Below, piece after piece: positions 17,359-62,957 of a stretch of DNA of 64,000 nt (its first letter is position 1; each line of letters begins with the position of its first letter). This stretch comes from Acidimicrobiales bacterium. GTDB taxonomy: Bacteria > Actinomycetota > Acidimicrobiia > Acidimicrobiales > Aldehydirespiratoraceae. Made by a program: the position numbers and the translations under genes. The notes under the pieces are model-generated. The model was not told the DNA's origin and made no database searches. It saw nothing but the letters and a program-made list of their open reading frames with translations. The DNA lies in NCBI GenBank assembly GCA_049437325.1, contig JBMTIM010000001.1, forward strand, positions 16,738 through 80,737. Reading direction: 5' to 3'.

Positions 17359-17402
17359 GTGTTGTATTCCTTGGGACAAACACACAACCGCCAGTTCCCA
17401 GT

Positions 17403-17434
17403 CGTGAATCGCTGAGCATGCTCAGAGACTCACG
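17403..17434 (-). promoter_or_regulatory. Imperfect 12-bp stem-loop in the pnp 5' leader (candidate processing or autoregulation hairpin)
   Basis: CGTGAATCGCTGAGCATGCTCAGAGACTCACG. Positions 17403-17416 pair with 17421-17434 with two mismatches and a 4-nt loop. It lies 45 nt upstream of the pnp ATG, inside the 204-nt rpsO-pnp spacer. Confidence 0.4.
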
Positions 17435-17521
17435 ACTACGCACCAACCGTCGTGTGCTCGATTGTTCGCAGGACGTTCCTGCTACTGGGATTCGTCGGGT
17501 TTCCACGGAAACGATCCGGCG

Positions 17522-17552
17522 GAAACCGAAAGGGCGACCCGGAGGGCCGCCC
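17522..17552 (-). terminator. Intrinsic-terminator-like hairpin after rpsO (probable partial terminator/attenuator ahead of pnp)
   Basis: The minus-strand RNA reads GGGCGgCCC-UCC-GGGuCGCCC followed by UUUCGGUUUCC. It begins 11 nt after the rpsO stop. Confidence 0.5.
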
Positions 17553-17562
17553 TCACATCTTG

Positions 17563-17844
17563 TCAGCGACGCAGACCGAGGTGTGCGATCACCGCACGGT
17601 AGCGTTCGACGTCGTTGTCCCGGATGTAGTCCAGGAGACGACGACGGCGGCCGACCAGCATGAGGAGGCCACGCTGGGTGTGGAAGTCCTTCTTGTGGAC
17701 CTTCATGTGCTCGGTGAGGTGGTTGATTCGCTCCGAGAGGAGCGCAACCTGAATCTCGGGCGAGCCGGTGTCGTTCTCGGCAAGACCGAAGGCCTTCGCC
17801 ATGTCGGCGATGGTTTCGCTCTTGTCACGCAGATTCACTGCCAT
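17563..17844 (-). CDS. rpsO: 30S ribosomal protein S15
   Basis: 93 aa with [47 protein letters not shown]. The rpsO-pnp arrangement is canonical. Confidence 0.97.
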
Positions 17845-18045
17845 GGTCGTGTGCGTCTTTCCTTGGGTGCGTTACCCGGCCGTCCGTACCGCTGTGCGAG
17901 CAGGACCGCGGGTCCCCGCGATGAGGACCCCTCGAGGATAGCGGGCCGCTGTGGAAATCGTTTCGTGCAGCTGCACCGAACTCGCAATCGTGACCAGCAG
18001 CCCGGCGCTCTCCGGCTCGCCCGACCCGACCCTGGAGCTGCAGGT

Positions 18046-18570
18046 TCACGGGGTCAGATCGAGTTCCCAGGTCCCCTCGACGTCGAGAATCCTGACCAGC
18101 GCTTCCCGATCGACCGGGCCGGCGGTGCCGCCTTCGGCTGTCACCCGGCAGGCGATCTCGCGCCCCACCACGATCACGACCCGTGATTCCGCGCAACGAA
18201 CCAACGCCGTATCCCCGAGGTCCGCATCGAGGCGGGCTGCTGCGTCGAGCTCGACCGCCGACACGTCGAGAACCGGCGTCTCGAGCGCAACCGTCACTTC
18301 GACCGATTCAGCATCGGCACGGATCAGTGCAACATCGAGCACGACCTGGTCACCACCCAGGACCCCAGCGCAGGTGATCAGCTCGAACCCGCCCTCGGGA
18401 ATCGGTGCCAGCTCCTCGACCCTCGGACACCCGATGTCGGCGATTCCGAGATCGCCAGCCGCCCCGGCGACCGCTGCCTCGACATCGGAGCGCTGCAGGT
18501 CGGGAAGCTCCTCCGCACACGCAACCGTGCCTGCAAGCAGCAGAAGCAACAGGGTCAGGTGGCGAGCCAC
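18046..18570 (-). CDS. Secreted or lipoprotein-like protein, DUF4333-like
   Basis: A signal/lipobox-like stretch LLLLLAGTVAC is followed by two Cys-containing ~70-aa modules. The start is inferred at GTG 18570; the longer ORF-track form overlaps the upstream gene extensively. Confidence 0.6.
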   Translation of the reverse strand: MARHLTLLLLLLAGTVACAEELPDLQRSDVEAAVAGAAGDLGIADIGCPRVEELAPIPEGGFELITCAGVLGGDQVVLDVALIRADAESVEVTVALETPVLDVSAVELDAAARLDADLGDTALVRCAESRVVIVVGREIACRVTAEGGTAGPVDREALVRILDVEGTWELDLTP

Positions 18571-19187
18571 AACACCACTCCCACCTGGCCGAGATGGCCG
18601 GTGGCGTGCACCAGTGCGTTGCCTCCCGGCGCCGGAGCGACGAAACGGTTCCATGTGACCAACGCCGCCGATGCGAAGAAGCACCCACCGCCGATCGCTG
18701 CGATCAAGACACCGGTACCAGCCGCAAGAATCCCGAGCAACGCGGCAGTGAAGAGCGCGCCGGCGATCAGAATGCCGGCCGCCGGGTGTTGTCTGCGGGC
18801 GCCGTCGATGATCTGCGGAGCCGCCCCGATCCCGATCCCGACGTAGAGCAGTGCGGCGACGACAGCGGTTGCCGGTTCGACCGCCTCGACGAGGGCAGCA
18901 GCGAAGAGCACGTGGGCAACGACGGTGGCAAGAATCCCAGCCTCGAAACGGGCGTCAGGAGTCGAGAGCACCACGTCCCCCACGAGGGCCGCTCCCAACG
19001 CCGCAACGATGAGTCCACGGGTGATGTCCGCCGGCGTTTCGATCGCAAGCGCGGCCCCGATCAATGCGATGTCGACCAACGGCTTGGCGATGAACTCGAC
19101 ACTCACCCGCCGACGAGCAACACCCCACCAGTCGACCAGCGCCGCGATGAGCGCCAGCGCAAGCAGGAGGTCCGCTGCGACGGTCAC
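18555..19187 (-). CDS. Polytopic membrane protein, YhhN (lysoplasmalogenase)-like
   Basis: 210 aa with about 7-8 hydrophobic helices. The family assignment rests on overall pattern only, not a verified motif. Confidence 0.5.
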   Translation of the reverse strand: MTVAADLLLALALIAALVDWWGVARRRVSVEFIAKPLVDIALIGAALAIETPADITRGLIVAALGAALVGDVVLSTPDARFEAGILATVVAHVLFAAALVEAVEPATAVVAALLYVGIGIGAAPQIIDGARRQHPAAGILIAGALFTAALLGILAAGTGVLIAAIGGGCFFASAALVTWNRFVAPAPGGNALVHATGHLGQVGVVLWLAT

Positions 19188-19193
19188 CCGGAA

Positions 19194-20396
19194 TCAGACC
19201 TCGGCTGCGATGGCGTCGGCGAAGCTGGTCCCATTCTCGATCATGGTCTTGTACTGCATGACATGGCGCGGACGATTGAATCCGAGGACACCGACAAGCT
19301 TCCCTTCCCGACCGTAGAGCGCCGCAAACCGATGATCTTCGAGGGTGCCGGTGACGACCTCGACCTCGTCATCGGGTCGAACCCGACCGGCGAGCTGGAT
19401 CTTGCGGTCGTACTGATCGGACCAGAACCACGGGACCGGCGCAAAGGGCTGCGCCTCGGCATCGGGGGTCAGGAGCCGCTCTGCTGCATGCACGCCCTGC
19501 TCGATCGCATTGTCCCAGTGCTCGACCCGCATCACCTCGTCGAAGCGATGATTTGGCCAACGGGCAACGTCACCCGCTGCGGTGACGCCCGGCCCAGCAA
19601 GCATGGTCGCATCACAGACGACACCGTTGTCGATGGTGAGCCCAGACCCCTCGAGCCATTCGGTGTTCGGAACGACGCCGATACCGACGACGACGAGGTC
19701 GGTGTCGATTTCGGTGCCATCGGTCAACACAACCGACGTGACGCGGCCCCGCTCGGCCTCGACGCGATCGACACCGACATTGGTCCGCAAATCCACACCG
19801 TGGCGGCGGTGAACCTCGGCACAGACCTCTCCCATCCGTTCGCCCAGGACTCGGCCAAGTGGCGTCGGCAGGGCTTCGACCATCGTCACGTCGAGCGCAC
19901 GCTGGCGGCACGTGGCGGCGACCTCTGCACCGATGAACCCGGCACCGACGACGACAACCCGCCGGGGGCCCGCCTCGAGCTCGGCCCGCAACGCCAGGGC
20001 CTGATCGAGGTCGCGCAACACGTGGACCCCTCCGATGGTTTCGGCACCGGGCAGGGTGCGGCAGCGCGCTCCGGTGGCGACCAGCAGCCCGTCGACCACG
20101 TCGTCACCATCGCTGGTGGACAAGGTACGGCTCTCGAGATCGAAACCCGTTGCGCGCACACCGAGACGAAGGTCGAGCCCCAACTCGTCGAGGGTCTGCG
20201 GTTTCGTCAGTTGAATGCGATCGGTGTCCCAACTGCCGGCAAGGACCTGCTTCGACAGCGGTGGACGGTCGTAGGGCAGGTGGGACTCGGCACCGATCAG
20301 GACAATGCGACCGTCGAATCCGCGACGACGGAGCGCCTCGACAGCACGGATCCCGGCAAGCGATGCACCGACGACATGGATCGATTGTCGAGGCAT
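19194..20396 (-). CDS. NAD(P)H-dependent ferredoxin reductase (putidaredoxin/rhodocoxin reductase class flavoprotein)
   Basis: 400 aa with two dinucleotide folds (IHVVGASLAG and RVVVVGAGFIGAEVA). It begins 12 nt downstream of a small ferredoxin gene. Confidence 0.85.
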   Translation of the reverse strand: MPRQSIHVVGASLAGIRAVEALRRRGFDGRIVLIGAESHLPYDRPPLSKQVLAGSWDTDRIQLTKPQTLDELGLDLRLGVRATGFDLESRTLSTSDGDDVVDGLLVATGARCRTLPGAETIGGVHVLRDLDQALALRAELEAGPRRVVVVGAGFIGAEVAATCRQRALDVTMVEALPTPLGRVLGERMGEVCAEVHRRHGVDLRTNVGVDRVEAERGRVTSVVLTDGTEIDTDLVVVGIGVVPNTEWLEGSGLTIDNGVVCDATMLAGPGVTAAGDVARWPNHRFDEVMRVEHWDNAIEQGVHAAERLLTPDAEAQPFAPVPWFWSDQYDRKIQLAGRVRPDDEVEVVTGTLEDHRFAALYGREGKLVGVLGFNRPRHVMQYKTMIENGTSFADAIAAEV

Positions 20397-20408
20397 CGAG
20401 CTTGCGAC

Positions 20409-20600
20409 TCAGTCCTCGAGCGAAATTGCCTGCTTCGGGCAGCGCTGGACGCACTCCTCCATCCGCGCACGATCACCCTCGTCGGGGTGCTCGTTGAGGA
20501 CGTAAAGGAAGTCGTCATCTCGGACCTCGAACACATCGGGTGCAATCTGCATGCAAATGGCGTTGCTCTCGCACAGATCGAAATCGACCACGATCTTCAT
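20409..20600 (-). CDS. Small single-cluster ferredoxin ([3Fe-4S]/[4Fe-4S] type)
   Basis: 63 aa: MKIVVDFDLCESNAICMQIAPDVF...CVQRCPKQAI. The Cys pattern is C-x5-C ... C-x3-CP. Confidence 0.85.
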   Translation of the reverse strand: MKIVVDFDLCESNAICMQIAPDVFEVRDDDFLYVLNEHPDEGDRARMEECVQRCPKQAISLED

Positions 20601-20635
20601 TGGACGTCCTCCCCGGACCGGTTGCTGGCCGCAGA

Positions 20636-21640
20636 CTATACGCCACCGGGATACCCGAAGACGTCGGCGGTGAGCTCGATCGAGTGCAGGCGCTGTTGCG
20701 TGGTCGGCGACGGGTGCACAGTGATCAGCTCGTCGACGTCGGCTTCCTGTGCAAGGTTCTCGAGGTAGCGCTTCACGAGTTCGGGCGAGCCGGCGGCGGT
20801 GTAGTGGGTCATCTGGGCAATTCCCTGGCCCTGCGGGGAGGCCAGCAGCTCGTCGGCCTCGTCGTCGGTGAGTTCGCGCGGGACGCGGAGGAACCGAGCG
20901 ACCCTCTTACGGGTGACGGCGAGTCGCTGCGACTCGGCGTCGGCGTCGGTATCGGCAGCAATCACATTGACCCCTGCGATCGCATACGGCTCGGACAGGC
21001 AGGCGCTCGGCTCGAACCGTTCTCGGTACAGCTCCACGGCCTGCAGGAGCGCTCCGGGAGCGAAATGAGACGCAAAGGCGTACGGCAGACCGAGCGTTGC
21101 CGCGAGCTGAGCGCCGAACAACGACGAGCCCAGGATGTAGAGCGGTACATGCGTTCCACCGGCCGGCACCGCCTCCACGCCGGGCACGAGCGATTCGCCC
21201 GCCAGGTAGGCCTGCAGTTCCAGTACGTCTTGCGGGAACCGGTCGGAGGCCGCCGGATCGACACGCATGGCACGCATCGTCATCTGGTCGGTGCCCGGCG
21301 CGCGTCCCAGGCCGAGGTCGATGCGACCCGGATGCAACGTGGCCAGCGTGCCGAATTGCTCGGCGATGACGAGCGGGGAGTGATTGGGCAACATGACGCC
21401 ACCAGAACCGAGCCGGATCGTCTCGGTGTGGGCAGCCACATGTGCGATCAGCACACTGGTCGCCGACGACGCGATCGACGCCATGTTGTGATGCTCGGCG
21501 TACCAGACCCGCCGGTACCCGCGGGCCTCTGCCGTCTGCGCCATTGCGACGCTGTTGGCAAAAGCCTGGGCCGGTGTCTCGTCAGAGCCGACGATCGCGA
21601 GATCGAGGATGGAAAGGACCGGACGATCTGCGAATGCCAC
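20636..21640 (-). CDS. LLM-class flavin-dependent oxidoreductase (luciferase-like, YhbW-type group)
   Basis: 334 aa with SILDLA...[13 protein letters not shown]...[24 protein letters not shown], typical of the luciferase-like monooxygenase fold. Confidence 0.85.
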
Positions 21641-21696
21641 CCGCTCAGCCTAGAGACCTGGACCCGACTGTTCGAACCGGGGCAACCGATCGAACG

Positions 21697-23298
21697 TCAC
21701 GTTCCCGGGCGCTGTTTGACGTCGATTCCGAACGTCGCACGAACGCGAGCGTCGATGTCGGCGGGGATGTGGTCGGGCCAGTGGTTCTCGAGCAGGTCGT
21801 TGGCTCGCTCGTGTGCTCGAACCAGTTGATCCTTGCCGCCGGCGTCCATCCAGTTGTCGGGGGTGTCGCGATCCCCGACCTCGGGGTAGAGATACTCGCG
21901 TTGCATCAGGTCGAGTGTCTGTTGTGAGCCCAGGAAGTGACCGGCCCCGGTGACCACGTCATGGATGACCTGGGTCGAGAGCGTCTCCTCGTTGACTTCG
22001 ATCCCGCGGACGGTGCGGTTGATCGCACCGAGCATGTCGTTGTCGATCACGAGGCCCTCGAACGAGCAGCTGAGCAGCGATGCGAGCATGCCGGCCGATT
22101 CGTACACGAGATTCGCACCGGCATGGCCGGCAAGCGCGATGTTGAGCCCTTTTTCGTAGCCGGCTTGATTGTCGGGGACCTTGGAGTCGGCCATACCGGC
22201 CGCAACCCCTGACGGCAGTCCGAGCCAGTTGGCTGTCTGGGCTGCGGCGGCGTTGAGCACCCCCTCCTCACCCGAACCCCCGCTCATGGCACCGGTGCGA
22301 AGATCGGACACGAAGGGCCACAGTCCCATCACGCACGGGTGCCCCGGAGACATCAGATTGACGGTGGTGAGGCCGGCGAGACACTCGGCCAAGGCCTGCG
22401 CCAGCGAACCGGCGAGCGCAGCCGGCGAGGTCGCACCGGCCTGTCCGGCCGACAACAGGTTGATCGGCATGCCGCACTCCACCTGGGCGACCATGCACCT
22501 GATCGACTCCTCGGCGAACCGCATCGGTGGGACCACGAAGGTGTTGTTGGCCGCCACGATCGGGCGCCGACGAAACTCCCCCTCTCCTCCCATCAACATG
22601 TCGAGCATTGCCACTGTCTCATACACGTGGGGTTTCTCGAACCACGACGTGCCGATCGGCTTGCGACAGCCGGCGACGGCACCGTACGCAGTGTTGAGAT
22701 CGAGCAGTCGACTGTCGGCGTGATTCCGGGCCACCACGGTGCGGACGTAGAAGTGAATGTTGTCGAGTGCATCGACGAGACGGCCACAGTCGTACACATC
22801 GTCACCGGTGGAGTGACGAAAGGAGTTCGTCGGATAGTCGTACATGAGCACGGCCGCCCCACCCGTGCCGAAATGGACTTTGTCGCCGCCGACCTCGATC
22901 GAGTGCGACTCGTCCCATGCGTGCCATGTCCACGTCTTCGCAGCCGTCTCGATCGCCCGCTCGACGATCGCCTTCGGGTAGTAGAGGCGATCACCATCGA
23001 CCCGGCCTCCGGCGGCGGTGACGACGTCGATGAACTCGGGGATCGGTGAGCCCATCCCCACGTTCTCGAGCAGCCAGATCGCCGCGTCGTAGACCTGCTG
23101 CAGATCGGCTTCGGTCAGCGGCTTGTACAGACCGCCGGCAAGGCCGGGGCGGACCGGCCGCATGTCCTTGCCGAGCGGCGCCTGGCGAGCGGCAACTCTC
23201 CCGGCACGACCGCCGGAGCGACGCCGCGACGGGGGCCCATCGATCGTCGTGACGTCGAGGTCGCCGGTCTCACTCAATTCGGTGTCCTGTTCGTTCAT
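21697..23298 (-). CDS. MttB-superfamily (trimethylamine methyltransferase-like, non-pyrrolysine) quaternary-amine methyltransferase homolog
   Basis: 533 aa. An Arg-rich N-terminal leader (SRRRSGGRAGRVAARQ) is followed by LTEADLQQVYDAAIWLLENVGMG and a TIM-barrel-length body, as in non-Pyl MttB homologs. There is no in-frame TAG. The start ATG overlaps the upstream stop as ATGA. Confidence 0.8.
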   Translation of the reverse strand: MNEQDTELSETGDLDVTTIDGPPSRRRSGGRAGRVAARQAPLGKDMRPVRPGLAGGLYKPLTEADLQQVYDAAIWLLENVGMGSPIPEFIDVVTAAGGRVDGDRLYYPKAIVERAIETAAKTWTWHAWDESHSIEVGGDKVHFGTGGAAVLMYDYPTNSFRHSTGDDVYDCGRLVDALDNIHFYVRTVVARNHADSRLLDLNTAYGAVAGCRKPIGTSWFEKPHVYETVAMLDMLMGGEGEFRRRPIVAANNTFVVPPMRFAEESIRCMVAQVECGMPINLLSAGQAGATSPAALAGSLAQALAECLAGLTTVNLMSPGHPCVMGLWPFVSDLRTGAMSGGSGEEGVLNAAAAQTANWLGLPSGVAAGMADSKVPDNQAGYEKGLNIALAGHAGANLVYESAGMLASLLSCSFEGLVIDNDMLGAINRTVRGIEVNEETLSTQVIHDVVTGAGHFLGSQQTLDLMQREYLYPEVGDRDTPDNWMDAGGKDQLVRAHERANDLLENHWPDHIPADIDARVRATFGIDVKQRPGT

Positions 23299-25778
23299 GC
23301 GCGGAGCGCAGCATTGGCCGGGTCGTACGCTGCATCGGCGAGCACGGTGGCGGTGCGACGAACGCCGAGCATGTCGAGTTCGAAGATCGACCCGGGCGCC
23401 TCGTAGTCGGGCGCCACATAGACGAAGCCGAGGGATTTGCCGACCGAGTGGCCAAACGCACCGGATGTCGCAATTCCCATGACCTTGCCGTCGTTGCCGT
23501 AGGCGGGTTCGTTGCCTCGAAGGTCGGATGCACCGTCGGAGATTTCGCAGTAGACGAGCACCATCGACAGCGGGTCGGCCTGATCGCGACGGTCGATGGT
23601 GGCGTCCTTGCCGATGAAGTCACCATCGAAGTCGACGAAGCGTTCGAGACGGGCCTCGATCGGCGTGATCTCGGTGGTGAGCTCGGAGCCCCAGGCCTTG
23701 TAGCCCTTTTCGATCCGCATGACGTTCATGGCGTACGAGCCGAAGTGGACCATTCCGAGTGGCTCGCCGACACCGACGAGGGCGTCGTACACCTCCCCCA
23801 TGGTGTCGATCGGCATGTGGAGTTCCCAGCCGAGTTCGCCGACGTAGCTCACCCGCAGGGCCTTCATCTCGACCCCGGCAACGGTGATCTCTTGGGCGGT
23901 GAGCCAACGGAAGGCCGGCGCATGCAGGTCGGCCTCGGTCAATTGGGAGAGCACGTCTCGGGCCCGGGGCCCGGTGACCGCAATAATGCCGTTGGCATCG
24001 GTGACATCGGTGACGGTCACGTCCTCACCGTCCAGGATGTGGCTGTTGAGCCAATCCTCGTCGTGGGTGGTTCCTGTGATTGCCGAGTTGAGGTAGTAGC
24101 GCCCCTCTCCGAAACGGGTGATGGTCATCTCGCACTCGATGCCACCGAGCTCGGTCAACATGTGCACGAGACGCATGGCCCCGTCCGTGCTCGGAATCCT
24201 GTTCGCGCTGACCCGGTCGAGAAGGTCGGCCGCCTGGGGCCCCGTGACCTCGAACTTGGCGAACGCGGTGAGGTCGGCGATGCCGACCCGTTCGCGCGTT
24301 CCTCGGACTTCTTCGCCGACAAGCTCGTGGGCATTGGACCGGAGAAAGGTGTGTCGTTCGGGCGCACCGAAGTATTGGGGACGCTCCCAGCCGTAGACCT
24401 CTTCCCATTGAGCACCTCGGGCATCGAGGCGGTCGTACAGCGGATTGATCTTCTGCTTTCGGGCCGCCGGGTGATGTTCCCCCGGTGGACGGGTGGCGTA
24501 CATGAGGTGGTATTCCTCGATCGCCTTGTCCACCGCAAACTGACCGGACGCGCCTGCGTGGCTGCCGAAGCGGCGCGGGTCCATCCCCCGCACATTGATC
24601 TCGGTCTGGCCGTGGACGATCCACTGGGCCAGGTACTTTCCGGCGCCCGGACCCTGCGTGATGCCGATCGATGCGCCACTGCAATGCCAATAATTGTGCA
24701 GACCGGCTTCGGGGCCCATGAGATAACCCGAGTCGGGCGTATGGGTGATCGGACCCGACACGACCTTCTTGATGCCGCTTTCGGCCCACGCCGGCACGCG
24801 TTCGAGCGCCACGGTGAGACAGTCGGCGATCGCATCAAGATCGGGCGGCGTGAGGTAGAAGTCGAGGTTCCAGTCGATCCCGTCGACGCCGTAGGTCTGA
24901 GCGCCGCTCGTCTCGTACGGACCGATCAAGATTCCATCGATTTCTCGGCGGTAGTACGACGACGAGACTGGATCACGGGTGACGGGGATCTCGACATCGA
25001 GCGCCTTCATCGCGTCGAGTGGCTCGGTGATGATGTACTGGTGGATCACCGACACGATCGGTACGTCGATCCCGACCATGGCGCCGAGTTGTGGTGCATA
25101 GTGACCGGCAGCGTTGACAACGTGCTCGGCGACGATCCGTCCCTGCTCACTGATGATCTCCCAGCGACCGTCAGGCAGCTGGTTCATGTCGGTGACCCGG
25201 TTGTGTCGGATGATTTCGGCTCCGAGTTGTCGGGCCCCTTTGGCCATCGCGTTGGTGACACCGGTCGGGTCGGCCCAGCCGTCGTTGGGCGTCCAGAGCG
25301 CCGACTGGACATCGTCGATGTTTTCCATGAGCGGGTTGAGCTCTTGGATTCGAGCCGGGCCGACGATCTCGTTCTCGATACCCAGTTGGTCGAGTTGGGC
25401 ACTCACCTGGCGGTGCCAGAGGACGTCGTTTTCCGAGATGGCGAACCGCAGCGCGCCGCAACCGTGCCAACCCGACGAGAGGCCGGTCTCTGCTTCGATC
25501 TTCGGATAGAGCGAGACGGCTTCCTGATGGACCTTCGCCATGTTCAGATCGCCGATGAAATTCGGGACGAGTCCGGCGGCATGCCATGTCGACCCGGAGG
25601 TGAGTTCACCCTTTTCGATCAGTACGGTGTCCGGACCCCAGCCCTCGTGGGCCAAGAAGTACAGCAATCCGACGCCCATGGCTCCGCCGCCGATGATGAC
25701 GCAGCGCGCTTCATCCCTCACGGTTGATGCCCCCTCGAAGTAGACGTTCCGCGCAACCCAATGACGCCAGCGTTTCAC
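23295..25778 (-). CDS. Dimethylglycine/sarcosine dehydrogenase-family flavoprotein (FAD DAO domain + GcvT folate-binding domain)
   Basis: 827 aa with an FAD fold CVIIGGGAMGVGLLYFLA and a C-terminal aminomethyltransferase-type domain (RVSYVGELGWELHMP). The ORF-track start is GTG 25778. An alternative GTG at 25721 would leave a 101-nt divergent promoter region. Confidence 0.88.
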   Translation of the reverse strand: MKRWRHWVARNVYFEGASTVRDEARCVIIGGGAMGVGLLYFLAHEGWGPDTVLIEKGELTSGSTWHAAGLVPNFIGDLNMAKVHQEAVSLYPKIEAETGLSSGWHGCGALRFAISENDVLWHRQVSAQLDQLGIENEIVGPARIQELNPLMENIDDVQSALWTPNDGWADPTGVTNAMAKGARQLGAEIIRHNRVTDMNQLPDGRWEIISEQGRIVAEHVVNAAGHYAPQLGAMVGIDVPIVSVIHQYIITEPLDAMKALDVEIPVTRDPVSSSYYRREIDGILIGPYETSGAQTYGVDGIDWNLDFYLTPPDLDAIADCLTVALERVPAWAESGIKKVVSGPITHTPDSGYLMGPEAGLHNYWHCSGASIGITQGPGAGKYLAQWIVHGQTEINVRGMDPRRFGSHAGASGQFAVDKAIEEYHLMYATRPPGEHHPAARKQKINPLYDRLDARGAQWEEVYGWERPQYFGAPERHTFLRSNAHELVGEEVRGTRERVGIADLTAFAKFEVTGPQAADLLDRVSANRIPSTDGAMRLVHMLTELGGIECEMTITRFGEGRYYLNSAITGTTHDEDWLNSHILDGEDVTVTDVTDANGIIAVTGPRARDVLSQLTEADLHAPAFRWLTAQEITVAGVEMKALRVSYVGELGWELHMPIDTMGEVYDALVGVGEPLGMVHFGSYAMNVMRIEKGYKAWGSELTTEITPIEARLERFVDFDGDFIGKDATIDRRDQADPLSMVLVYCEISDGASDLRGNEPAYGNDGKVMGIATSGAFGHSVGKSLGFVYVAPDYEAPGSIFELDMLGVRRTATVLADAAYDPANAALRA

Positions 25779-25795
25779 TGAATGGAACGTTTCGG
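25771..25795. promoter_or_regulatory. Candidate IclR operator in the DMGDH / iclR divergent region
   Basis: There is an imperfect inverted repeat CGTTTCA-N5-TGGAACG (25771-25789), followed by the AACGTT core in GGAACGTTTC. A reverse-complement partner ACGTTCC lies at 25744-25750. The stretch is unusually AT-rich for this sequence. Confidence 0.3.
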
Positions 25796-25822
25796 TCTGT
25801 GGCCACTAGTGTAGCTCTTGGC

Positions 25823-26557
25823 ATGCAATCAATCGACCGGGCGTTCACCGTTCTTCGTGCCGTTGCGTCTCGCGCCGGAACCTCGTCGCTTGCAGACGTC
25901 ACGAAGGCATCGGGCCTCCCCAAGTCGACCGTCCTCCGACTGTTGACGGCGCTCGAGGAGCAGGGTGCGATCCAGGTCCTCGGTGGCCGGTTCGGGATCG
26001 GCCCGGGACTCGCGGTGCTCTCCCATGGTGGAGCACCGGTGAGTGCCCTCAAGGAGATTGCACGCCCTCATCTTGTCGAACTCGCCGAACAGATCCAGGA
26101 AAACGTGTCGCTGATGATTCCCGACGGTGAGGTCACGCTCTACATCGACACCGCCATCTCGGAGAGTTCGGTCATGGTCCAGGACTGGAACGGGGAACGA
26201 CTGCCCTATCACGGTTCGGCCGGTGGCCTTGCGCTGTTGTCGTCGTGGACCGATGTCGAGATCGCCAAGCTCGCCGCCAGCGGCCTCGAGGCGTACACCG
26301 CGACCACGGTGACGACGCTGGCCGGCCTCATGGCAAAGGTCGAGCACGCTCGCCGAACGGGTGTTGCGCTCACCCATCAGGAGTTCAGTGACGACGTCAA
26401 CGGCTTCGGCTCGCTGGTGACCGGACCCGACGGGGAGCCGCTCGCTGCAGTCAACGCCTACGGACCCGACTACCGCTTCCCTGGCGATCGAGACGCTGCC
26501 GAGATCAGTGCTGCGGTCCTCGAAACCGCCCGGGCGATCACCGATCGACTGGGCTGA
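25823..26557 (+). CDS. IclR family transcriptional regulator
   Basis: Start at ATG 25823 (MQSIDRAFTVLRAVA). It has an N-terminal wHTH (LADVTKASGLPKSTVLRLLTALE) and a C-terminal IclR effector domain. It is divergent from the DMGDH-MttB operon. Confidence 0.88.
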   Translation: MQSIDRAFTVLRAVASRAGTSSLADVTKASGLPKSTVLRLLTALEEQGAIQVLGGRFGIGPGLAVLSHGGAPVSALKEIARPHLVELAEQIQENVSLMIPDGEVTLYIDTAISESSVMVQDWNGERLPYHGSAGGLALLSSWTDVEIAKLAASGLEAYTATTVTTLAGLMAKVEHARRTGVALTHQEFSDDVNGFGSLVTGPDGEPLAAVNAYGPDYRFPGDRDAAEISAAVLETARAITDRLG

Positions 26558-26599
26558 TCGGCGGTTGCGTTCACCGGGCACCCCTGCTGTGATCTGCCC

Positions 26600-28018
26600 A
26601 TGGTCGAACTCACCAGCTCACTGACCGCCATCGTCGACGCACTCGAATCGAGAGCGATTGGCGCCACCGAGCTGCTCGACGCCCATCTGGACCGAATCGA
26701 GCGGCTCGACGCGGAGATCAACGCCGTCGTCACACTCGCTCCCGATCGAGCCCGCACCGAGGCGCATGCTGTCGACACCGCTCGCACAGCGGGCGAGCCT
26801 CTCGGCCCACTGGCAGGCGTCCCCATCACTGTCAAGGACGCACTCGCCACCGCCGGCATCCGTTCCACCGGTGGCGCCGACGAACTCGTCGATCATGTGC
26901 CCACCGACGATGCCACGGTCGTCTCGACCGTTCGCAACGCAGGAGCGTTGGTCTTCGGCAAGACCAACGTGCCTCGCTGGTCGGGCGATTACCAAAGCTT
27001 CAACAAGCTCTTCGGCACGACGAACAACCCGTGGGATCTCGAACGTACGCCGGGTGGCTCGTCGGGCGGACCGGCAGCGGCAGTTGCGATGGGATTCACC
27101 GGTTTCGAGATCGGCACCGACATCGGTGGATCGATCCGGGTGCCAGCGTCATTTTGCGGGATCTATGGCCACAAGCCGAGTTTCGGCGTGATCCCCACCT
27201 ACGGCTACCTCGACAGCGTTCGGTTTCACCGCAACGTCAGTGACGTCAACGTCTTCGGCCCGATGGCTCGATCGATCGATGACCTCGAGCTGCTCTTCGG
27301 TCTGTTGGCAGGCCCGAACCCCGACGACGCACCCGGTTGGAAGCTCGACCTTCCTCCATCTCGAGCCGAGGCGATCGGTGACTTCCGGGTGGCGGCGTGG
27401 CTCGACAGCGACTTCGCCCCAATCGATCCCTCCGTCGCAACCGTGCTCGCCAACGCCACCGACGCGCTCGAGCGTGCCGGCGCCCGCATCGACCATGGCC
27501 GGCGGCCGGCAATCGATGCCACTGCAGCCGCCCTCAACGGCTCGGCGCTGATCGGTCTTGCCACCCGCATCTCCGACAGCGACAGCCCGGACGGCCCGGA
27601 GCCTCCGGGCGCACCGGTCCCTCATCGTCAGTGGGATGTCCGCCACCGCGAGCGAGGTGTCGTCCGACGGAGGTGGGCCGAGTTCTTCGACGAGATCGAC
27701 ATCCTGCTGTGTCCTGTCACACCGATCCCGGCGTTCCGTCATGTGCACACCGACGACGGATCGAACTGGACGCACGCCCAGATCGAGGAGTTCGGCGACC
27801 TGCCGTACGGACAGCTGGTGCTGTGGAACTCGCTCATCGGCAGTGCCTACCTCCCCGTCACCACCCCACCGGTCGGGTACACGGCCGACGGGCTTCCGGT
27901 GGGGATTCAAGTCGTTGCTCCCTACCTGCACGACCGCACCGCGCTCACGTTCGCCCGACGGATCACCGAGGTCCTCGGGGGCTACACGCCACCACCGCTG
28001 GCGGTCGATCGGCCGTGA
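26600..28018 (+). CDS. Amidase-signature family amidase
   Basis: 472 aa with an intact Ser-cisSer-Lys triad context: ITVKDAL, TPGGSSGGPAAAVA, GTDIGGSIRVPA. Confidence 0.88.
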   Translation: MVELTSSLTAIVDALESRAIGATELLDAHLDRIERLDAEINAVVTLAPDRARTEAHAVDTARTAGEPLGPLAGVPITVKDALATAGIRSTGGADELVDHVPTDDATVVSTVRNAGALVFGKTNVPRWSGDYQSFNKLFGTTNNPWDLERTPGGSSGGPAAAVAMGFTGFEIGTDIGGSIRVPASFCGIYGHKPSFGVIPTYGYLDSVRFHRNVSDVNVFGPMARSIDDLELLFGLLAGPNPDDAPGWKLDLPPSRAEAIGDFRVAAWLDSDFAPIDPSVATVLANATDALERAGARIDHGRRPAIDATAAALNGSALIGLATRISDSDSPDGPEPPGAPVPHRQWDVRHRERGVVRRRWAEFFDEIDILLCPVTPIPAFRHVHTDDGSNWTHAQIEEFGDLPYGQLVLWNSLIGSAYLPVTTPPVGYTADGLPVGIQVVAPYLHDRTALTFARRITEVLGGYTPPPLAVDRP

Positions 28019-28084
28019 CACGGGCGGTTCGATGTGTGAACGGAACGCTGTCGACCAGGTCGACCTCCACAACGGTGCTCGGCG

Positions 28085-29413
28085 TCAGGGCGACCAGAAG
28101 GCAACGTCACCCTCGCTCACCCGTATCGCACTGTCACTGTCGAGTCTGCGGACCCAGATGCTGTCGCCGAGTTCGTCCTGAGCGGCGTAGACGATCGCAT
28201 TGCTACCCGGCGACCAGATGCGCGGCGACTCGGTGTACTGCCACGAGAAGAAGACGTAGTTCCGAAAGAACGTGAGCGTGGGCCGAAACGGTTCGAGTCG
28301 GGTCGTCGACTCACCGTCCCAGATCACCCAAACCGCACTGTCACGTGCAGCGCTGGGCTGCATCAGCGCGAGCTTCGTGCCGTCGGGTGACCATTCGGTC
28401 CAGATCGACAGTTCGTCGGAGATCGGGGTGCGCTCTGCGGTCTCGAGATCGATGATTTCGGTCGATGCAGTCACCGCTGCGGGTGCGAAACCGACCGTGA
28501 CATTCCCATCTCCCCCCGGACCGACCGCGTGGGCGAGCACGGCCCGCCGTCCATCCGGCGACACTGCGATGCCGATCGAACCATCGACCGGCCCGAGGTC
28601 GACAGACTCCAACGTGTCGACGTCGAGGCGAGTCAGTCGGCCGCCCGTCACTGCTTCTTCGACGAGCAAGACGTGCCGCGTCCCCGGGATCCAGGCAGGG
28701 GCGAGAAACGACTGACCAGGCTCACCGAGGGGTTCGACAGTCGTGAGGTCGGTCGGATCGCGCACCAACTCGAGCACTCGATCGCGGTGAATGACGAGGT
28801 CGTCTCCTCCACCTGGCTCCCAGGCCAGGTAGAAGCTCGCAGTGTCGAGGCTGTCGTCGCTCACCGGAACTCCATCCGGACCAAGGATGTCCAGGGAGGT
28901 TCCCAGCGGACCGGGCCCGAGGGCTGCGATGTACGCGCCGTCGGTACTCCAGGAGTAGAAGAAATAGGGCCGACGGGACGGTCGAATCGTGACCGCCTCA
29001 CCCTCCACCGCCACGGTGGTGACCGGCTCTGCGACGGCGGTGGCGATGATGTTCGCCCCGTCGCGCGACCACGTGGGCTGGGTCACGGCAACACCCGCCG
29101 TCGGGAAGCTCTCCACCGTGCGTCCCGACGGATCGGTGACGACCAGGTTGCGAAACCCACCAATCGCGAGAAGGCCACCCAGACCATCGCCGAGCGAAGG
29201 TGTCGCCTCGCTCGCCGGAACCGTCGTGGTGGACGCTGGTCCGTCGGCCGAGGGCGGCGCAGAGGTTGTCGGTGACGATGTCGCCTCGACCTCGGTGACC
29301 GTCGAGTCCGGACTCGAGAATCGGGCGTCGAGCTCCTCGGGACTCACCGACGTGCAGCCGCCCGCGAGGAGCGCACCGATGACGAGGGCCGCGCAGCGAG
29401 GGATGACGGGCAC
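28085..29413 (-). CDS. Lipoprotein with a TolB-like (PD40/WD40-like) beta-propeller
   Basis: Signal + lipobox VIGALLAGGCTS, then an S/T/P-rich linker. Repeated W-S-x-D-G motifs follow (WSRDGANI, WSTDGAYI, VSPDGRRA, WSPDGTKL). Confidence 0.75.
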   Translation of the reverse strand: MPVIPRCAALVIGALLAGGCTSVSPEELDARFSSPDSTVTEVEATSSPTTSAPPSADGPASTTTVPASEATPSLGDGLGGLLAIGGFRNLVVTDPSGRTVESFPTAGVAVTQPTWSRDGANIIATAVAEPVTTVAVEGEAVTIRPSRRPYFFYSWSTDGAYIAALGPGPLGTSLDILGPDGVPVSDDSLDTASFYLAWEPGGGDDLVIHRDRVLELVRDPTDLTTVEPLGEPGQSFLAPAWIPGTRHVLLVEEAVTGGRLTRLDVDTLESVDLGPVDGSIGIAVSPDGRRAVLAHAVGPGGDGNVTVGFAPAAVTASTEIIDLETAERTPISDELSIWTEWSPDGTKLALMQPSAARDSAVWVIWDGESTTRLEPFRPTLTFFRNYVFFSWQYTESPRIWSPGSNAIVYAAQDELGDSIWVRRLDSDSAIRVSEGDVAFWSP

Positions 29414-29482
29414 CTACGGACCGTACTCCGGCCGGACGGCTTGTCGCGACCGTCCAACCCGCCTGCTGGGGTCCATCCTCGA

Positions 29483-31933
29483 CTAGTCCGCGAGATGCGG
29501 CCGCCGATTCTGGGGGTCGTACCACGAACGGATCGAGGCCGAGACGGGCACCCGCCGGCCCCCGATGTTGGTTTCCCACTCGCCATCTTCGAGCCAGGCC
29601 GCCGTCACTGCTTCACCGCCGGGATGCTCGACGTATCCCATTGCACAGCAGCGGTCCTGCGTGACCGACCACATCGACGACGACGTCCGCCCGACGACGA
29701 CACCACTGCGGTACAGCGGCTCGTCGTGGTAGGTCAGAAGGTCGGGATCCTCGATCCGGAACTGGATCAGCCGTTTGCTTCGAGGCTGCTCGCGCTGGGC
29801 CAGGAGCGCCTCGCGGCCGACGAAGTCGCCCTTGTCCCAGTCGATGACGAAACCGAGCCCTGCCTCGAGCGGGGTGTCCTCGTCGGAGATGTCGTGACCC
29901 CAATGGCGCATGCCGGCTTCGAGACGCAGCGAATTCATGGCGTGGTACCCGGCCAAGACCAGCCCGTAGTCTCCACCTGCTGCTACCAGAGCGTCGAAGA
30001 CGGCGCCGGCACCGTCGTTGCCGACGTACAGTTCCCAGCCGAGCTCGCCGACGTAGCTCATTCGCAGTGCCAGACAGGTCTGCCCCGCGACCTCCATGCG
30101 CTTGCTCCAGCCAAATGGAAAGCTCTCGTTCGACAGATCGACATCGGTCAGCTCCGACAACAATGCGCGGCTGTTGGGACCCATCACCCCAAGCATCACG
30201 AAATCGTGTGTGACGTTGGTGATCGTGACGTCCTTGCCAGCTGCGGCCCGCCGTAGCCAGGTCCAGTCGCGGGTCTCGGCGGCTGCGGCCGTGACGACGA
30301 AGAAGCTGTCGTCACTCATTCGCGTGACTGTGAGATCGGCCTCGATCCCACCCCGCGCGTTGCACCACTGGGTGTAGATCGCCTTGTGCATCGGGGCGTC
30401 GATGTTGGCAACGGAGATCGTGTCGAGCACCTCGAGAGCATCAGGACCCTCGACCCGAAATTTCGCGAACGAGGTCTGATCGAACAGGCCGACCGCCTCC
30501 CGCACGCCGACGCACTCGCGGACCATGTTGTCGTGCCAGTTCTGCTTCCCGTACGAGTAGTCGTATGCGCGAGCCTGGCCCTCCTCGGCGAACCAATTCG
30601 GACGCTCCCAACCGGCGGTCTCGCCGAACACGGCGTTGGCGGCATCGAGCCGATCGTGCAGGGGCGACAGTCGCATCCCGCGAGCTGATTCGTACTGCCG
30701 GAACGGCCAGTGCATCGCATAGAGCAGACCGAGACTTTCCGAGATTCGGTCGGTGAGGTAGCCGACATCACCCTGGAACGGCTGGGCTCGGCGAATGTCG
30801 ACCGAGTTGAGATCCATCGGTGGGTGTCTGTCTGCGATCCAATCTGCGAGCGCCCATCCGACACCCCCGGCCGACTGAATACCGACGGAGTTGAAGCCGG
30901 CGGCGACGTAGCAGTTGTCGACCTCAGGGGCCTCCCCCATGTAGAACACGCCGTCGGGGGTGAAGGCTTCCGGGCCGTTGAAGAACAGCTGCAAACCGAC
31001 CTCACCGAGCACCGGCACGCGATGCATGGCGGCCTCGAAGATCGGTCCAACGTGCTCCCAGTCCTCGGGAAGACTGGCAAAGCTGAAGTCACGCGGGATC
31101 CTGTCGGTGCGCCAGATCTTGCCGCGCGGCTCGAAAAAGCCGGCCATGATCTTGCCGGTCTCTTCTTTGAAATAGGTGTAGTTGCCGGGATCGCGCAGCG
31201 TCGGGGTCCCGGGATCGAGTCCCTCGATCGGCTCGGTCACGATGTAGAAGTGCTCGCACGCCTGCAGGGGAACGTTCACGCCGATCTGCGCGGCAAGATG
31301 ACGGGTCCACATGCCGGTGGCGAGCACCACAATCTCGGCCTCGATCTCGCCCTGCTCGGTGACGACGCCCGTCACCTTGCCGTTGCTGGCAGAGAGCTGG
31401 GTGACGGCGACGTTCTCGATCACTGTCGCCCCGCGTGCCTTCGCACCCTTGGCGAGCGCCATGGTGGTGTCGACCGGCGAGGTCTGGCCATCCCTCGGGA
31501 TGTACAACGCGCCCACAAGATCGTCGGTGCGCATGTGTGGCCACTTTTCCGACGCTGCCTGGAGATCGAGAATCTGCGTCTCGACTCCAACCCCTTCGGC
31601 CATCGTTGCACCACGGAGGATCTCTTCCCACCGCTCGTCGTTGTCGGCCACACTCAACGAGCCCGGAGTTCGGTAGCCCGTCGCCTGTCCGGTTTCGTCT
31701 TCGAGCTCCTCGAACAGCCGGGCGGAGTAGGTCGCCAGCTTCGTGAGCGAGTGGGTGGCTTTGAGCTGACTGACCAGGCCGGCTGCGTGCCAGGTGGTGC
31801 CGGCCGTGAGCGTGTTCTGCTCGAGTACGACGACGTCGGTGATGTCGCGACGGGTGAGGTGATAGGCGATGCTGCAACCGACGATCCCACCACCGACGAC
31901 GACGACGTGCGCACGATCCGGAACGCGTGACAT
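29483..31933 (-). CDS. Second dimethylglycine/sarcosine dehydrogenase-family flavoprotein (FAD + GcvT domains)
   Basis: 816 aa with an FAD fold HVVVVGGGIVGCSIAYHL and a GcvT-type C-terminal domain (RMSYVGELGWELYVG). It is a paralog of 23295..25778. Confidence 0.88.
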   Translation of the reverse strand: MSRVPDRAHVVVVGGGIVGCSIAYHLTRRDITDVVVLEQNTLTAGTTWHAAGLVSQLKATHSLTKLATYSARLFEELEDETGQATGYRTPGSLSVADNDERWEEILRGATMAEGVGVETQILDLQAASEKWPHMRTDDLVGALYIPRDGQTSPVDTTMALAKGAKARGATVIENVAVTQLSASNGKVTGVVTEQGEIEAEIVVLATGMWTRHLAAQIGVNVPLQACEHFYIVTEPIEGLDPGTPTLRDPGNYTYFKEETGKIMAGFFEPRGKIWRTDRIPRDFSFASLPEDWEHVGPIFEAAMHRVPVLGEVGLQLFFNGPEAFTPDGVFYMGEAPEVDNCYVAAGFNSVGIQSAGGVGWALADWIADRHPPMDLNSVDIRRAQPFQGDVGYLTDRISESLGLLYAMHWPFRQYESARGMRLSPLHDRLDAANAVFGETAGWERPNWFAEEGQARAYDYSYGKQNWHDNMVRECVGVREAVGLFDQTSFAKFRVEGPDALEVLDTISVANIDAPMHKAIYTQWCNARGGIEADLTVTRMSDDSFFVVTAAAAETRDWTWLRRAAAGKDVTITNVTHDFVMLGVMGPNSRALLSELTDVDLSNESFPFGWSKRMEVAGQTCLALRMSYVGELGWELYVGNDGAGAVFDALVAAGGDYGLVLAGYHAMNSLRLEAGMRHWGHDISDEDTPLEAGLGFVIDWDKGDFVGREALLAQREQPRSKRLIQFRIEDPDLLTYHDEPLYRSGVVVGRTSSSMWSVTQDRCCAMGYVEHPGGEAVTAAWLEDGEWETNIGGRRVPVSASIRSWYDPQNRRPHLAD

Positions 31934-31966
31934 GCCCGGAGGGTAGTACCCCGGGGCGAAAGCCCC

Positions 31967-32815
31967 TCAGCCGTTCACCGCCGAGATGATCGTGGCGTAA
32001 CGATCGAGGATCGGCAGGATCGTGGCGGCGGGTGCCGGCGGCAGGCCGAAGATGAACCGCTTCACACCGCCGTCCTCGTGGACCTTTGCGGCATCGACAT
32101 CCGGCGGCGCCATGTAGAGCGACAGTTCGATCTCGGAGACCTCCCGATCATGCTTCTTGCACTCCTCGGCGAGGACCGCAAGGTCGTCGAGCATCGTGCC
32201 CCCGCGTCCGTGGATCGGCATCCAGCCGTTGCCGTAGCGAGCAGCTCGGCGCGGACCATGCGGAGACGAACCGCCGACGTGAATCGGTGGGTGCGGTTGC
32301 TGCACCGGCTTCGGCTTCGAGAAGATCGGCCCGAAATCAACGAAGTCACCGTGGTACTCGGCTGGATCATCGGCCCAGATCGCCTGCATCGCTTCGACCC
32401 GTTCCCGCATGAGCGTGAAGCGGGAGCGGAAGGCCGTTCCGTGGTTCTCCATCTCCTCGGCATTCCATCCACCACCGATGCCGAAGAGAAAACGACCCCC
32501 CGAGACATGATCGATCGATGCAACCTCCTTGGCAGTGACGATCGGGTCCCGCTCGACCACGAGGCAGATACCAGTCCCAACCTTGAGGTTCGTCGTCGCG
32601 GTGGCTGCCGCAGTCAATGCCACGAACGGATCCATCGTCTCGTAGTACATCTGCGGAAGCTCGGCACCGCCGGGCCATGGGCTGCGGCGATCGGCCGGGA
32701 TGTGCGTGTGCTCGGCGACCCAGTACGACTCGAAACCACGCTCCTCGAGGGCCACCGCCAACTCGGCCGGATGCATCGCATCCTCGGTCGGAAAGAGACA
32801 AACCCCGAAGTCCAC
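31967..32815 (-). CDS. LLM-class F420-dependent oxidoreductase (Mer-related fold)
   Basis: 282 aa: MDFGVCLFPT...GFESYWVAEHTHIP...GGRFLFGIGGGWNAEEME...HPPIHVGG, typical of the probable F420-dependent LLM subgroup. Confidence 0.8.
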   Translation of the reverse strand: MDFGVCLFPTEDAMHPAELAVALEERGFESYWVAEHTHIPADRRSPWPGGAELPQMYYETMDPFVALTAAATATTNLKVGTGICLVVERDPIVTAKEVASIDHVSGGRFLFGIGGGWNAEEMENHGTAFRSRFTLMRERVEAMQAIWADDPAEYHGDFVDFGPIFSKPKPVQQPHPPIHVGGSSPHGPRRAARYGNGWMPIHGRGGTMLDDLAVLAEECKKHDREVSEIELSLYMAPPDVDAAKVHEDGGVKRFIFGLPPAPAATILPILDRYATIISAVNG

Positions 32816-32846
32816 CTGGATCTCCTCTACATGAGGCCGCCCGCAC

Positions 32847-62864: not shown

Positions 62865-62865
62865 G

Positions 62866-62957
62866 ACTTCCTCCGCTGGCATTACCCAGATCAGGTTCTG
62901 TCGGGTCGTCGACAGCTGTCGACCTCTCAGCCCGGCGTTGCGAGCTCCCCGGTTGGT
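62866..62957 (-). promoter_or_regulatory. TPP (THI-box) riboswitch
   Basis: The minus-strand RNA reads ACCGGGGAGCUCGCAACGCCGGGCUGAGAGGUCGACAGCUGUCGACGACCCGACAGAACCUGAUCUGGGUAAUGCCAGCGGAGGAAGU. It contains the conserved elements GGGG..., CUGAGA, and ACCUGAUCUGGGUAAUGCCAGCG. Its 3' end includes the Shine-Dalgarno sequence of thiB. Confidence 0.9.

Follow-up and report, generated by a model that had tools for sequence, protein, structure and literature searches.

Aerobic bacteria can demethylate glycine betaine with a corrinoid-dependent system in which MtgB, a methyltransferase of the family PF06253, works with the cobalamin-binding protein MtgC and the pterin-binding methyltransferase MtgD (Mausz et al. 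2025, PMC12478193). MtgC and MtgD also serve in the split methionine synthase MtgCDE, RamA and DUF1638 proteins lend support, and growth of Ruegeria pomeroyi on glycine betaine needs both mtgC and mtgD (PMC12478193). The MtgBCD genes are scattered in the genomes of R. pomeroyi and Phaeobacter inhibens, with unlinked partners being the norm (PMC12478193). Deletions in P. inhibens have shown that mtgB1 and mtgC are required for glycine betaine use, while the other three MttB paralogs of this organism were called uncharacterised (bioRxiv 10.64898/2025.12.19.695462). Here we describe a 64-kb stretch of Acidimicrobiales DNA (hereafter the window, meaning the whole stretch analyzed) in which an MttB-family gene occurs together with two genes for flavoproteins of the dimethylglycine dehydrogenase (DMGDH) type, DMGDH1 and DMGDH2. 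The three genes appear to form a conserved demethylation unit, probably served by corrinoid proteins encoded elsewhere in the genome, and the methyltransferase represents a distinct and so far uncharacterised MttB subfamily.

The glycine betaine pocket of this superfamily has been defined by structure and mutagenesis in MtgB of Desulfitobacterium hafniense (DSY3156), where Y97 and F356 provide cation-pi contacts and R312 and H348 bind the carboxylate (PMC13080624). The changes R312L and H348E abolish its activity, and R312 is conserved in MtcB, MtpB, MtyB and MthB (PMC13080624).

Like the MtgBCD systems of R. pomeroyi, P. inhibens and Sinorhizobium meliloti, the window locus pairs a PF06253 methyltransferase of an aerobic heterotroph with nearby demethylation genes, as is often seen in such systems, whose MtgC, MtgD, RamA and DUF1638 partners are often unlinked; Acidimicrobiales relatives carry the same mtgC operon. 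Unlike them, it encodes a methyltransferase that is not an MtgB orthologue and is without the MtgB substrate residues, shows none of the partner genes within the window and belongs to the Actinomycetota, which were not examined genome by genome in PMC12478193. The contrast with D. hafniense MtgB extends to lifestyle and gene order, since D. hafniense is anaerobic and encodes MtgC and MtgA next to that enzyme. The nearest homologues of the window MttB were found in metagenome-assembled genomes (MAGs) of Acidimicrobiales and other Acidimicrobiia, many of them marine or sponge-associated.

To define the conserved unit, we mapped the window proteins onto 80 genome loci around MttB homologues. Wherever an Acidimicrobiia-type locus had sufficient flank (58/58), the gene immediately preceding MttB on its strand was DMGDH1, and in most relatives DMGDH2 either immediately preceded DMGDH1 or immediately followed MttB. 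A divergent IclR regulator occupied the same position in six loci (L008, L012, L024, L035, L048 and L081). In the window itself, DMGDH2 is split from DMGDH1-MttB by an inserted amidase gene and a gene for a 442-amino-acid (aa) protein. Because this arrangement recurs across loci, we regard one MttB and two demethylases dependent on flavin adenine dinucleotide (FAD) and tetrahydrofolate (THF) as the core triad, and on this comparison the conserved unit is DMGDH2, DMGDH1 and MttB, accompanied in the nearest relatives by the divergent IclR gene. An earlier interpretation made without database searches (the sequence-only reading) had already suggested that the second flavoprotein gene could take part, and had proposed that MttB, DMGDH1, a luciferase-like monooxygenase (LLM)-type oxidoreductase, a ferredoxin (Fdx) and a ferredoxin reductase (FdR) act together; the neighborhood comparison upholds the DMGDH-MttB part and gives no support for including the LLM, Fdx and FdR genes. 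Among Gammaproteobacteria and Alphaproteobacteria, the usual order was MttB followed by one or two DMGDH-like genes, with S. meliloti having a DMGDH-like gene first. Two loci with Acidimicrobiia-type organization and proteins 65-76% identical to those of the window (L008 and L017) are labelled as Gammaproteobacteria and Verrucomicrobiales MAGs, and these taxon labels are probably binning errors.

The underlying gene calls were sound. Coordinates and minus-strand orientation of the open reading frames (ORFs) were reproduced, as was the ATGA overlap between DMGDH1 and MttB (stop TGA at 23297-23295, start ATG at 23298-23296), and the intergenic gaps were exactly 56 nt for MttB-LLM, 35 nt for LLM-Fdx and 12 nt for Fdx-FdR. 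All five family assignments (MttB, DMGDH-type, LLM, Fdx and FdR) passed curated profile thresholds, and the IclR assignment and its divergent orientation were likewise confirmed. Both flavoprotein genes encode the domain series DAO, FAO_M, GCV_T and GCV_T_C of the DMGDH/sarcosine dehydrogenase (SARDH) family. Their best matches in the PDB were DMGDH entries (5l46, 4pab and 4p9s), with scores to human DMGDH (5l46) of 560 bits for DMGDH1 and 461 bits for DMGDH2. The four-domain architecture is that of mitochondrial DMGDH, sarcosine dehydrogenase and Arthrobacter dimethylglycine oxidase; unlike for mitochondrial DMGDH, the acceptor electron-transfer flavoprotein (ETF) is not encoded in the window.

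Profile searches placed the window MttB in the family PF06253/COG5598 (349.7 bits against a cut-off of 25, residues 27-521) and below the cut-off of the trimethylamine MttB equivalog TIGR02369 (348.7 versus 525 bits). Its ORF contains neither an internal stop nor an in-frame UAG, and Met369 aligns with the pyrrolysine of Methanosarcina barkeri MttB (7xcl), a position at which D. hafniense MtgB has Leu, all of which indicates that the protein is not the pyrrolysine MttB proper. Its best PDB match was MtgB (2qne/9yce, E=1e-64, residues 58-522), compared to E=3e-55 for 7xcl, and it shares superfamily and TIM-barrel fold with D. hafniense MtgB (structures 2QNE and 9YCE) at 29% identity. In the alignment of the two proteins, Y97, R312, H348 and F356 of MtgB correspond to G147, G364, E400 and L408 of the window MttB, with HMMER and multiple alignments in agreement.

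These replacements characterize a whole clade, which we name the W subfamily (for window type) to set it apart from the canonical MtgB type. W-type proteins are 63-85% identical across Acidimicrobiia, where G147, G364 and E400 are invariant and L408 nearly so, and the pattern G, G/S, E/Q, L recurs in homologues from S. meliloti, the R. pomeroyi megaplasmid, Roseovarius, Anderseniella and Granulosicoccaceae. Canonical MtgBs from S. meliloti and from Acidimicrobiales operons are 41-45% identical to DSY3156 but only 26-29% identical to the window MttB. Y, R and H are retained in the second MttB-family gene of the mtgC operons (L032, L063, L169 and L170), and likewise in the gene next to mtgC in S. 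meliloti. Pocket residues and orthology both argue that the window MttB is not a canonical MtgB, and by the same comparison W and canonical MtgB are two subfamilies that can share a genome and in some cases even a cluster. We consider the W subfamily, as delimited by these alignments, to be a distinct, widespread and so far uncharacterised MttB subfamily and the new element of this locus.

Several W-type genes also carry a segment resembling a pyrrolysine insertion element. The Rfam family PYLIS_3 matched the window gene from the codon that aligns with pyrrolysine (Met369) onwards, and scored 42-53 bits (gathering score, 38) in this gene and in the W-type genes at L024 11006-11105, L032 11006-11105, L064 10985-11084 and L084 14985-15084; no match was found in canonical mtgB genes or in the R. 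pomeroyi paralog. We rejected a working insertion element, as the ORF is without an in-frame UAG, and the match most likely reflects coding-sequence homology to true mttB genes. In this segment the W clade is nearer to true mttB than canonical mtgB is.

Three alphaproteobacterial paralogs, S. meliloti LZK74_28410, R. pomeroyi SPO_RS21400 and Roseovarius indicus RIdsm_RS26915, belong to the same W subfamily, at 42-47% identity to the window MttB by multiple alignment and 44-50% by tblastn. They share the G, G/S, E/Q, L pattern and have one or two adjoining FAD/GcvT demethylases. Unlike the window, which has an IclR regulator, the alphaproteobacterial W clusters have a LysR regulator, and MttB comes first in R. 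pomeroyi and Roseovarius. On the R. pomeroyi megaplasmid (L085 11929-21249), the LysR gene is followed by genes for a W-type MttB, a class III aminotransferase, two FAD/GcvT demethylases and an enzyme binding thiamine pyrophosphate (TPP). This gene content looks like a full pathway that would take a trimethylammonium compound to an aldehyde or oxo-acid and then further, and it hints at a substrate other than glycine betaine.

We then searched for the corrinoid partners that such an enzyme would need. Within the window, no B12-binding, Pterin_bind, RACo/RamA, P450 or Rieske domain was detected when essentially every coding-like ORF, bar a few short ones, was scanned with Pfam. Reference MtgC, MtgD, RamA and DUF1638 sequences were taken from the S. 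meliloti cluster L168 (CP090106.1, a mislabelled chromosome record) and searched against all fetched loci, and none of the four had a tblastn match in the window. The two approaches agree on the absences that the sequence-only reading had listed for the 64 kb.

The further step of that reading, that MttB has no corrinoid partner, is not supported by comparison with relatives. In L032, L063 and L173, the genes directly after a W-type MttB gene (65-66% identity), all in its orientation, encode MtgC, DUF1638, a Virulence_fact-domain protein, MtgD, RACo/RamA and a canonical MtgB, and in L053 a W-type gene of the same identity (65-66%) is followed by those for MtgC, DUF1638 and MtgD up to the contig end. 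Pfam annotation of L173 revealed a nine-gene array of DMGDH2, DMGDH1, MTTB, B12-binding, DUF1638, Virulence_fact, Pterin_bind, RACo and MTTB, and a similar MttB-mtgC linkage was present in the alphaproteobacterial locus L075. Elsewhere the two gene sets share a chromosome at a distance. OY763490.2 (4,152,568 bp) carries the DMGDH1-MttB cluster (L004, 78% identity) at 3.10 Mb and, approximately 3 Mb away at 0.12 Mb, the mtgC operon (L169); in OZ220743.1 (4,121,895 bp), the W-type cluster (L028, 77%) lies at 0.46 Mb and the mtgC operon (L170) at 1.52 Mb, approximately 1 Mb apart. The L169 operon, located beside leuS, opens with mtgC and continues with a 257-aa ORF that has no Pfam match and occupies the DUF1638 position, then Virulence_fact, mtgD, ramA and MTTB. 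Overall, matches to W-type MttB and to MtgC fell on equal-sized contigs in 12 cases, 2 of which were verified by coordinates. The corrinoid, MtgA and RamA set whose discovery elsewhere in the genome had been named in advance as evidence against a partnerless MttB was found in these family-level relatives, not in the window's own genome. The gene layout of the window seems an ordinary one, as close relatives encode the helper proteins in a separate operon.

MtgC stands out among the partner proteins for its conservation. Sequences from Acidimicrobiales (L032 11862-12467, L063 11835-12458 and L053 3093-3692) are 76-79% identical to that of S. meliloti (L168 16632-17330), far above the values between the same groups for MttB (45-47%), RamA (52%) and MtgD (61%). 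This suggests that the hub shared with methionine synthase is very strongly constrained, or else that there was transfer between phyla. A homologue search with an Acidimicrobial MtgC query returned at least 120 matches, of which all listed ones were at least 93% identical to the query.

The LLM gene, which is of the MsnO8 type, had no homologue in any of the 80 genome loci and was found only in metagenome contigs 99% identical to the window (L088, L089 and L108). Contigs of this identity include Ga0181560_10003633, Ga0181558_10002957 and Ga0181577_10001205. Its slot is empty in L172, L005, L008, L009 and L014; it holds a short-chain dehydrogenase/reductase gene and a 107-aa ORF in L081, an opposite-strand 390-aa gene in L024 and approximately 5 kb of other genes in L007, L013 and L015. 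The gene is, by this distribution, a species-specific insertion outside the conserved module, and we rejected it as a pathway member owing to its absence from relatives among the 80 loci.

The ferredoxin pair has a wider but irregular distribution. In L005, L007-L009, L013-L015, L024, L081 and L172, Fdx-FdR follows MttB after the variable slot, which in L024 is an opposite-strand gene that separates the two. No Fdx-FdR pair was found within 10 kb of MttB in the equally close relatives L001-L004, L010, L011 and L028 or in any of the more distant Acidimicrobiia. The same pair was found in approximately 20 other contigs (among L090-L111; FdR 48-66% and Fdx 65-81% identical), none of which had MttB or DMGDH nearby; the neighbors there were genes for aminopeptidase N (PepN), NUDIX, YhhN, thiolase-like and CoA-transferase proteins. 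No cognate P450 or Rieske gene was found in the window or among the Pfam-scanned neighbors in L090, L092 and L100. In the window's family, Fdx-FdR also borders rpsO-pnp, in the order smc ... cluster ... Fdx-FdR-rpsO-pnp. Because the pair stands alone elsewhere and is lost beside MttB in close relatives, it does not look specific to the module. Fdx-FdR is probably a self-standing pair whose place beside MttB is best accounted for by a shared position on the chromosome, and its assignment to the module, like that of the LLM gene, was not sustained.

A quaternary nitrogen has no lone pair and is therefore not oxidizable by a flavoprotein. Enzymes of the MttB family instead remove one methyl group by SN2 transfer to Co(I), and DMGDH-type enzymes take the resulting tertiary and secondary amines, with the methyl carbon passing to THF. 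One MttB and two DMGDH-type enzymes make up the set needed to convert R-N(CH3)3+ to R-NH2, and the overlap or tight spacing of DMGDH1 and MttB fits consecutive pathway steps. In the pathway that we propose, the W-type MttB, a TIM barrel, would transfer the first methyl group from the quaternary nitrogen to the Co(I) of a separate corrinoid protein, MtgC, from which the pterin-binding methyltransferase MtgD would pass it to THF, while a RamA/RACo-type activase with DUF1638 would re-reduce oxidized cobalamin. The two DMGDH-type flavoproteins would then oxidize the tertiary and the secondary amine, each delivering its methyl group to THF as 5,10-methylene-THF. The genes for MtgC, MtgD, RamA and DUF1638 are predicted to lie elsewhere in the genome and to form a shared hub alongside a canonical mtgB, following the pattern of close relatives and of the published aerobic MtgBCD system. 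Under the divergent IclR regulator, the triad would strip the three N-methyl groups of a trimethylammonium compound, which would be glycine betaine or another betaine related to it. The DMGDH scores given above favor the sequence glycine betaine to dimethylglycine to sarcosine to glycine; because the pocket residues of the W type differ, glycine betaine is not an assured substrate. The protein families, the conserved triad and, in relatives, the linkage or same-chromosome co-occurrence of orthologues with mtgC/mtgD/ramA are seen directly; that this organism has the partners, which way the methyl groups flow and what the substrate is are inferred.

Taken as a whole, a triad served by an unlinked corrinoid hub, together with an inserted LLM gene and an independent Fdx-FdR pair, is in our judgment the best explanation and a probable one. 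Its central part, corrinoid-dependent wiring with unlinked partners, is likely in its own right, and within that wiring glycine betaine and another substrate have roughly equal claims. Of the earlier proposal of an aerobic quaternary-amine demethylation module, the aerobic-type trimethylammonium module is supported, and its corrinoid-free 'undescribed wiring' is not. Several observations weigh against the explanation that we prefer. The genes mtgC, mtgD and ramA are absent from the 64 kb of the window, so their presence in its own genome is predicted from relatives, and two of the nearest syntenic relatives, L081 (4,481,363 bp) and L172 (3,328,718 bp), were not among the 120 MtgC matches listed, all of them at least 93% identical to the query. 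The W type lacks all four glycine betaine residues of MtgB, including the R312 that is kept in all characterized quaternary-amine members, and E400 matches the inactivating H348E change. W-type genomes also carry a canonical MtgB, and the W type may have a different job. Finally, several genera have Fdx-FdR beside MttB, at 74-81% identity, and selection as well as descent could have kept it there.

The observations on the pocket lend weight to a variant that keeps the corrinoid-dependent wiring and changes the substrate. Here the W-type MttB would act on another trimethylammonium compound, probably bulkier or non-carboxylate, the DMGDH-type pair would handle its dimethyl and monomethyl products, and the canonical MtgB encoded elsewhere would take glycine betaine. 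We give this variant a substantial chance, somewhat short of even, and the same holds for the idea that the W subfamily as such constitutes a new, non-glycine-betaine substrate class of corrinoid-dependent methyltransferases. The clade-wide replacement of Y97, R312, H348 and F356, set beside canonical MtgBs in the same genomes that keep Y, R and H, points in this direction, as do the loss of MtgB activity in R312L and H348E (PMC13080624) and the co-occurrence of W-type and canonical genes in one genome or even one cluster. So does the R. pomeroyi W operon, whose class III aminotransferase and TPP enzyme would be superfluous if glycine were the end product, and an Aminotran_3 gene also lies near the cluster in L174. 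Against this, DMGDH1 strongly matches mammalian dimethylglycine dehydrogenase, and no other DMGDH/SARDH pair lies near the canonical mtgB operon in the two cases examined (L169 and L170), so that the W-side pair may process dimethylglycine. Nor does any transporter or extra enzyme in the Acidimicrobiia clusters hint at another substrate. A module that dispenses with corrinoid altogether, as the sequence-only reading had envisaged, would have MttB pass its methyl group to THF on the GcvT domain of the coupled DMGDH1, with Fdx-FdR as reductive activator or ETF substitute. The ATGA overlap, the universal adjacency of DMGDH and MttB, the 64 kb without a corrinoid, pterin or RamA gene and the position of Fdx-FdR downstream of MttB in the nearest relatives would all suit it. 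Yet consecutive pathway steps explain the adjacency equally well, the orthologues are linked to mtgC-DUF1638-mtgD-ramA or share a chromosome with it, all characterized members of the MttB superfamily methylate a corrinoid (PMC12155760, PMC13080624), and Fdx-FdR is missing near MttB in L001-L004, L010-L011 and L016-L061, stands alone elsewhere and is cut off from it in L024. We consider this module very unlikely, and hold a W-type MttB that works without any corrinoid protein, for example by direct transfer to THF on DMGDH1 in a B12-free aerobic betaine demethylation, to be slightly less probable still; the new substrate class is by far the likelier reading. It is also improbable, though less so, that Fdx-FdR is tied to the corrinoid-dependent module, whether as electron source for RamA-type reactivation of Co(II) or as electron sink of the DMGDH-type enzymes. 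The gene order kept in ten loci, the inclusion of an unrelated 234-aa ferredoxin in the mtgB clusters of S. meliloti and L075 and the lack of ETF genes in Pfam scans of the window would fit such a role, but equally close relatives and every more distant member of the Acidimicrobiia have lost the link, the pair (FdR 51-66% and Fdx 65-81% identical) occurs with unrelated neighbors, and shared descent suffices for a pair that also borders rpsO-pnp in the window's family.

The surroundings of the cluster are those of a chromosome (Table 1). G+C content across the window is 63-67%, the core chromosomal genes ftsK, rnj, dapA, dapB, pnp, rpsO, smc, fpg, rnc, plsX, recG and pckA are present, and a 22-kb part of the window, compared with plasmids by megablast, had no close relative among them, for which reason we assign the window to the Acidimicrobiales chromosome. 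The stretch from smc to rpsO-pnp (18555-32815 in the window versus 2600-13500 in L172) behaves as a variable slot around a fixed core. In L172, a 3.3-Mb relative, this slot holds only DMGDH2-DMGDH1-MttB-Fdx-FdR, in the order smc ... DMGDH2-DMGDH1-MttB-Fdx-FdR-rpsO-pnp-dapB-...-rnj-ftsK, and the window adds the F420-type LLM, the 442-aa protein, the amidase, IclR, the MsnO8-type LLM and YhhN to this layout. The 442-aa protein, which has no Pfam match, is kept at 50-53% identity in L008 and L024.

Table 1 Features of the window between rpsO and smc, with coordinates counted from the first letter of the window
Feature	Coordinates	Strand	Remarks
rpsO	17563-17844	-	One border of the stretch with the cluster
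YhhN	18555-19187	-	6 nt after FdR; not mentioned in the sequence-only reading
FdR, ferredoxin-NAD(P)+ reductase	19194-20396	-	Pyr_redox_2 and Reductase_C
Fdx, 63-aa single-cluster ferredoxin	20409-20600	-	Fer4_13/15/19
LLM oxidoreductase, MsnO8/YhbW-type	20636-21640	-	Bac_luciferase; TIGR03558, 397.7 bits
MttB, W subfamily, 533 aa	21697-23298	-	PF06253, 349.7 bits
PYLIS_3 (Rfam) match inside the MttB ORF	22095-22194	-	53.2 bits versus gathering score 38
DMGDH1, FAD/THF-dependent demethylase type	23295-25778	-	DAO, FAO_M, GCV_T and GCV_T_C
IclR regulator, divergent	25823-26557 (ORF opens 25724)	+	HTH_IclR and IclR_C
Amidase	26600-28018	+	Between IclR and the 442-aa protein gene
442-aa protein without Pfam match	28085-29413	-	Beside DMGDH2
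DMGDH2, DMGDH/sarcosine-dehydrogenase-type demethylase	29483-31933	-	DAO, FAO_M, GCV_T and GCV_T_C
F420-type LLM	31967-32815	-	Between DMGDH2 and smc
smc	32847-36323	-	Other border of the stretch with the cluster

Inspection of the divergent IclR-DMGDH1 junction suggested two refinements of the gene starts. The true start of DMGDH1 is more likely the GTG at 25724, which has GAGGGGG 8 nt upstream, than position 25778, and that of IclR is more likely the ATG at 25823 (MQSIDRAF...). Given these starts, the divergent control region would span 98 bp (25725-25822). Within it lie a near-palindrome, CGAAACGTTCC, with the core AACGTT, and a GAAAC motif that is repeated, and the region is a candidate for the IclR operator. 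A promoter and terminator scan of 17400-33000 returned no promoter-like and one terminator-like site, compared to approximately 6.5 expected by chance, and is uninformative on co-transcription. Outside the slot, a TPP riboswitch was predicted at 62851-62961 on the minus strand (54.6 bits; gathering score, 54.3) at the start of a solute-binding-protein ORF (61821-62966), which is followed by permease and ABC ATPase ORFs (60208-62193 and 59270-60403). From its sequence, this riboswitch-linked gene set looks like a thiamine-type ABC importer.

Together, these comparisons remove a false lead. When an aerobe has an MttB-family gene standing by itself, this is no evidence of B12-independent chemistry, because the hub of MtgC, MtgD, RamA and DUF1638 is usually encoded elsewhere and shared with methionine synthesis. 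The type of system is known, and the aerobic MtgBCD-type system is here extended to marine and sponge-associated Acidimicrobiia; what is new is the uncharacterised subfamily to which its first enzyme belongs here. The W subfamily is singled out as well delimited, widespread, always beside DMGDH-type genes and endowed with a different substrate pocket. In ocean and sponge metagenomes, reads annotated as 'mttB' are often misread as markers of trimethylamine or methanogenesis, and knowing the substrate of the W type would improve their annotation.

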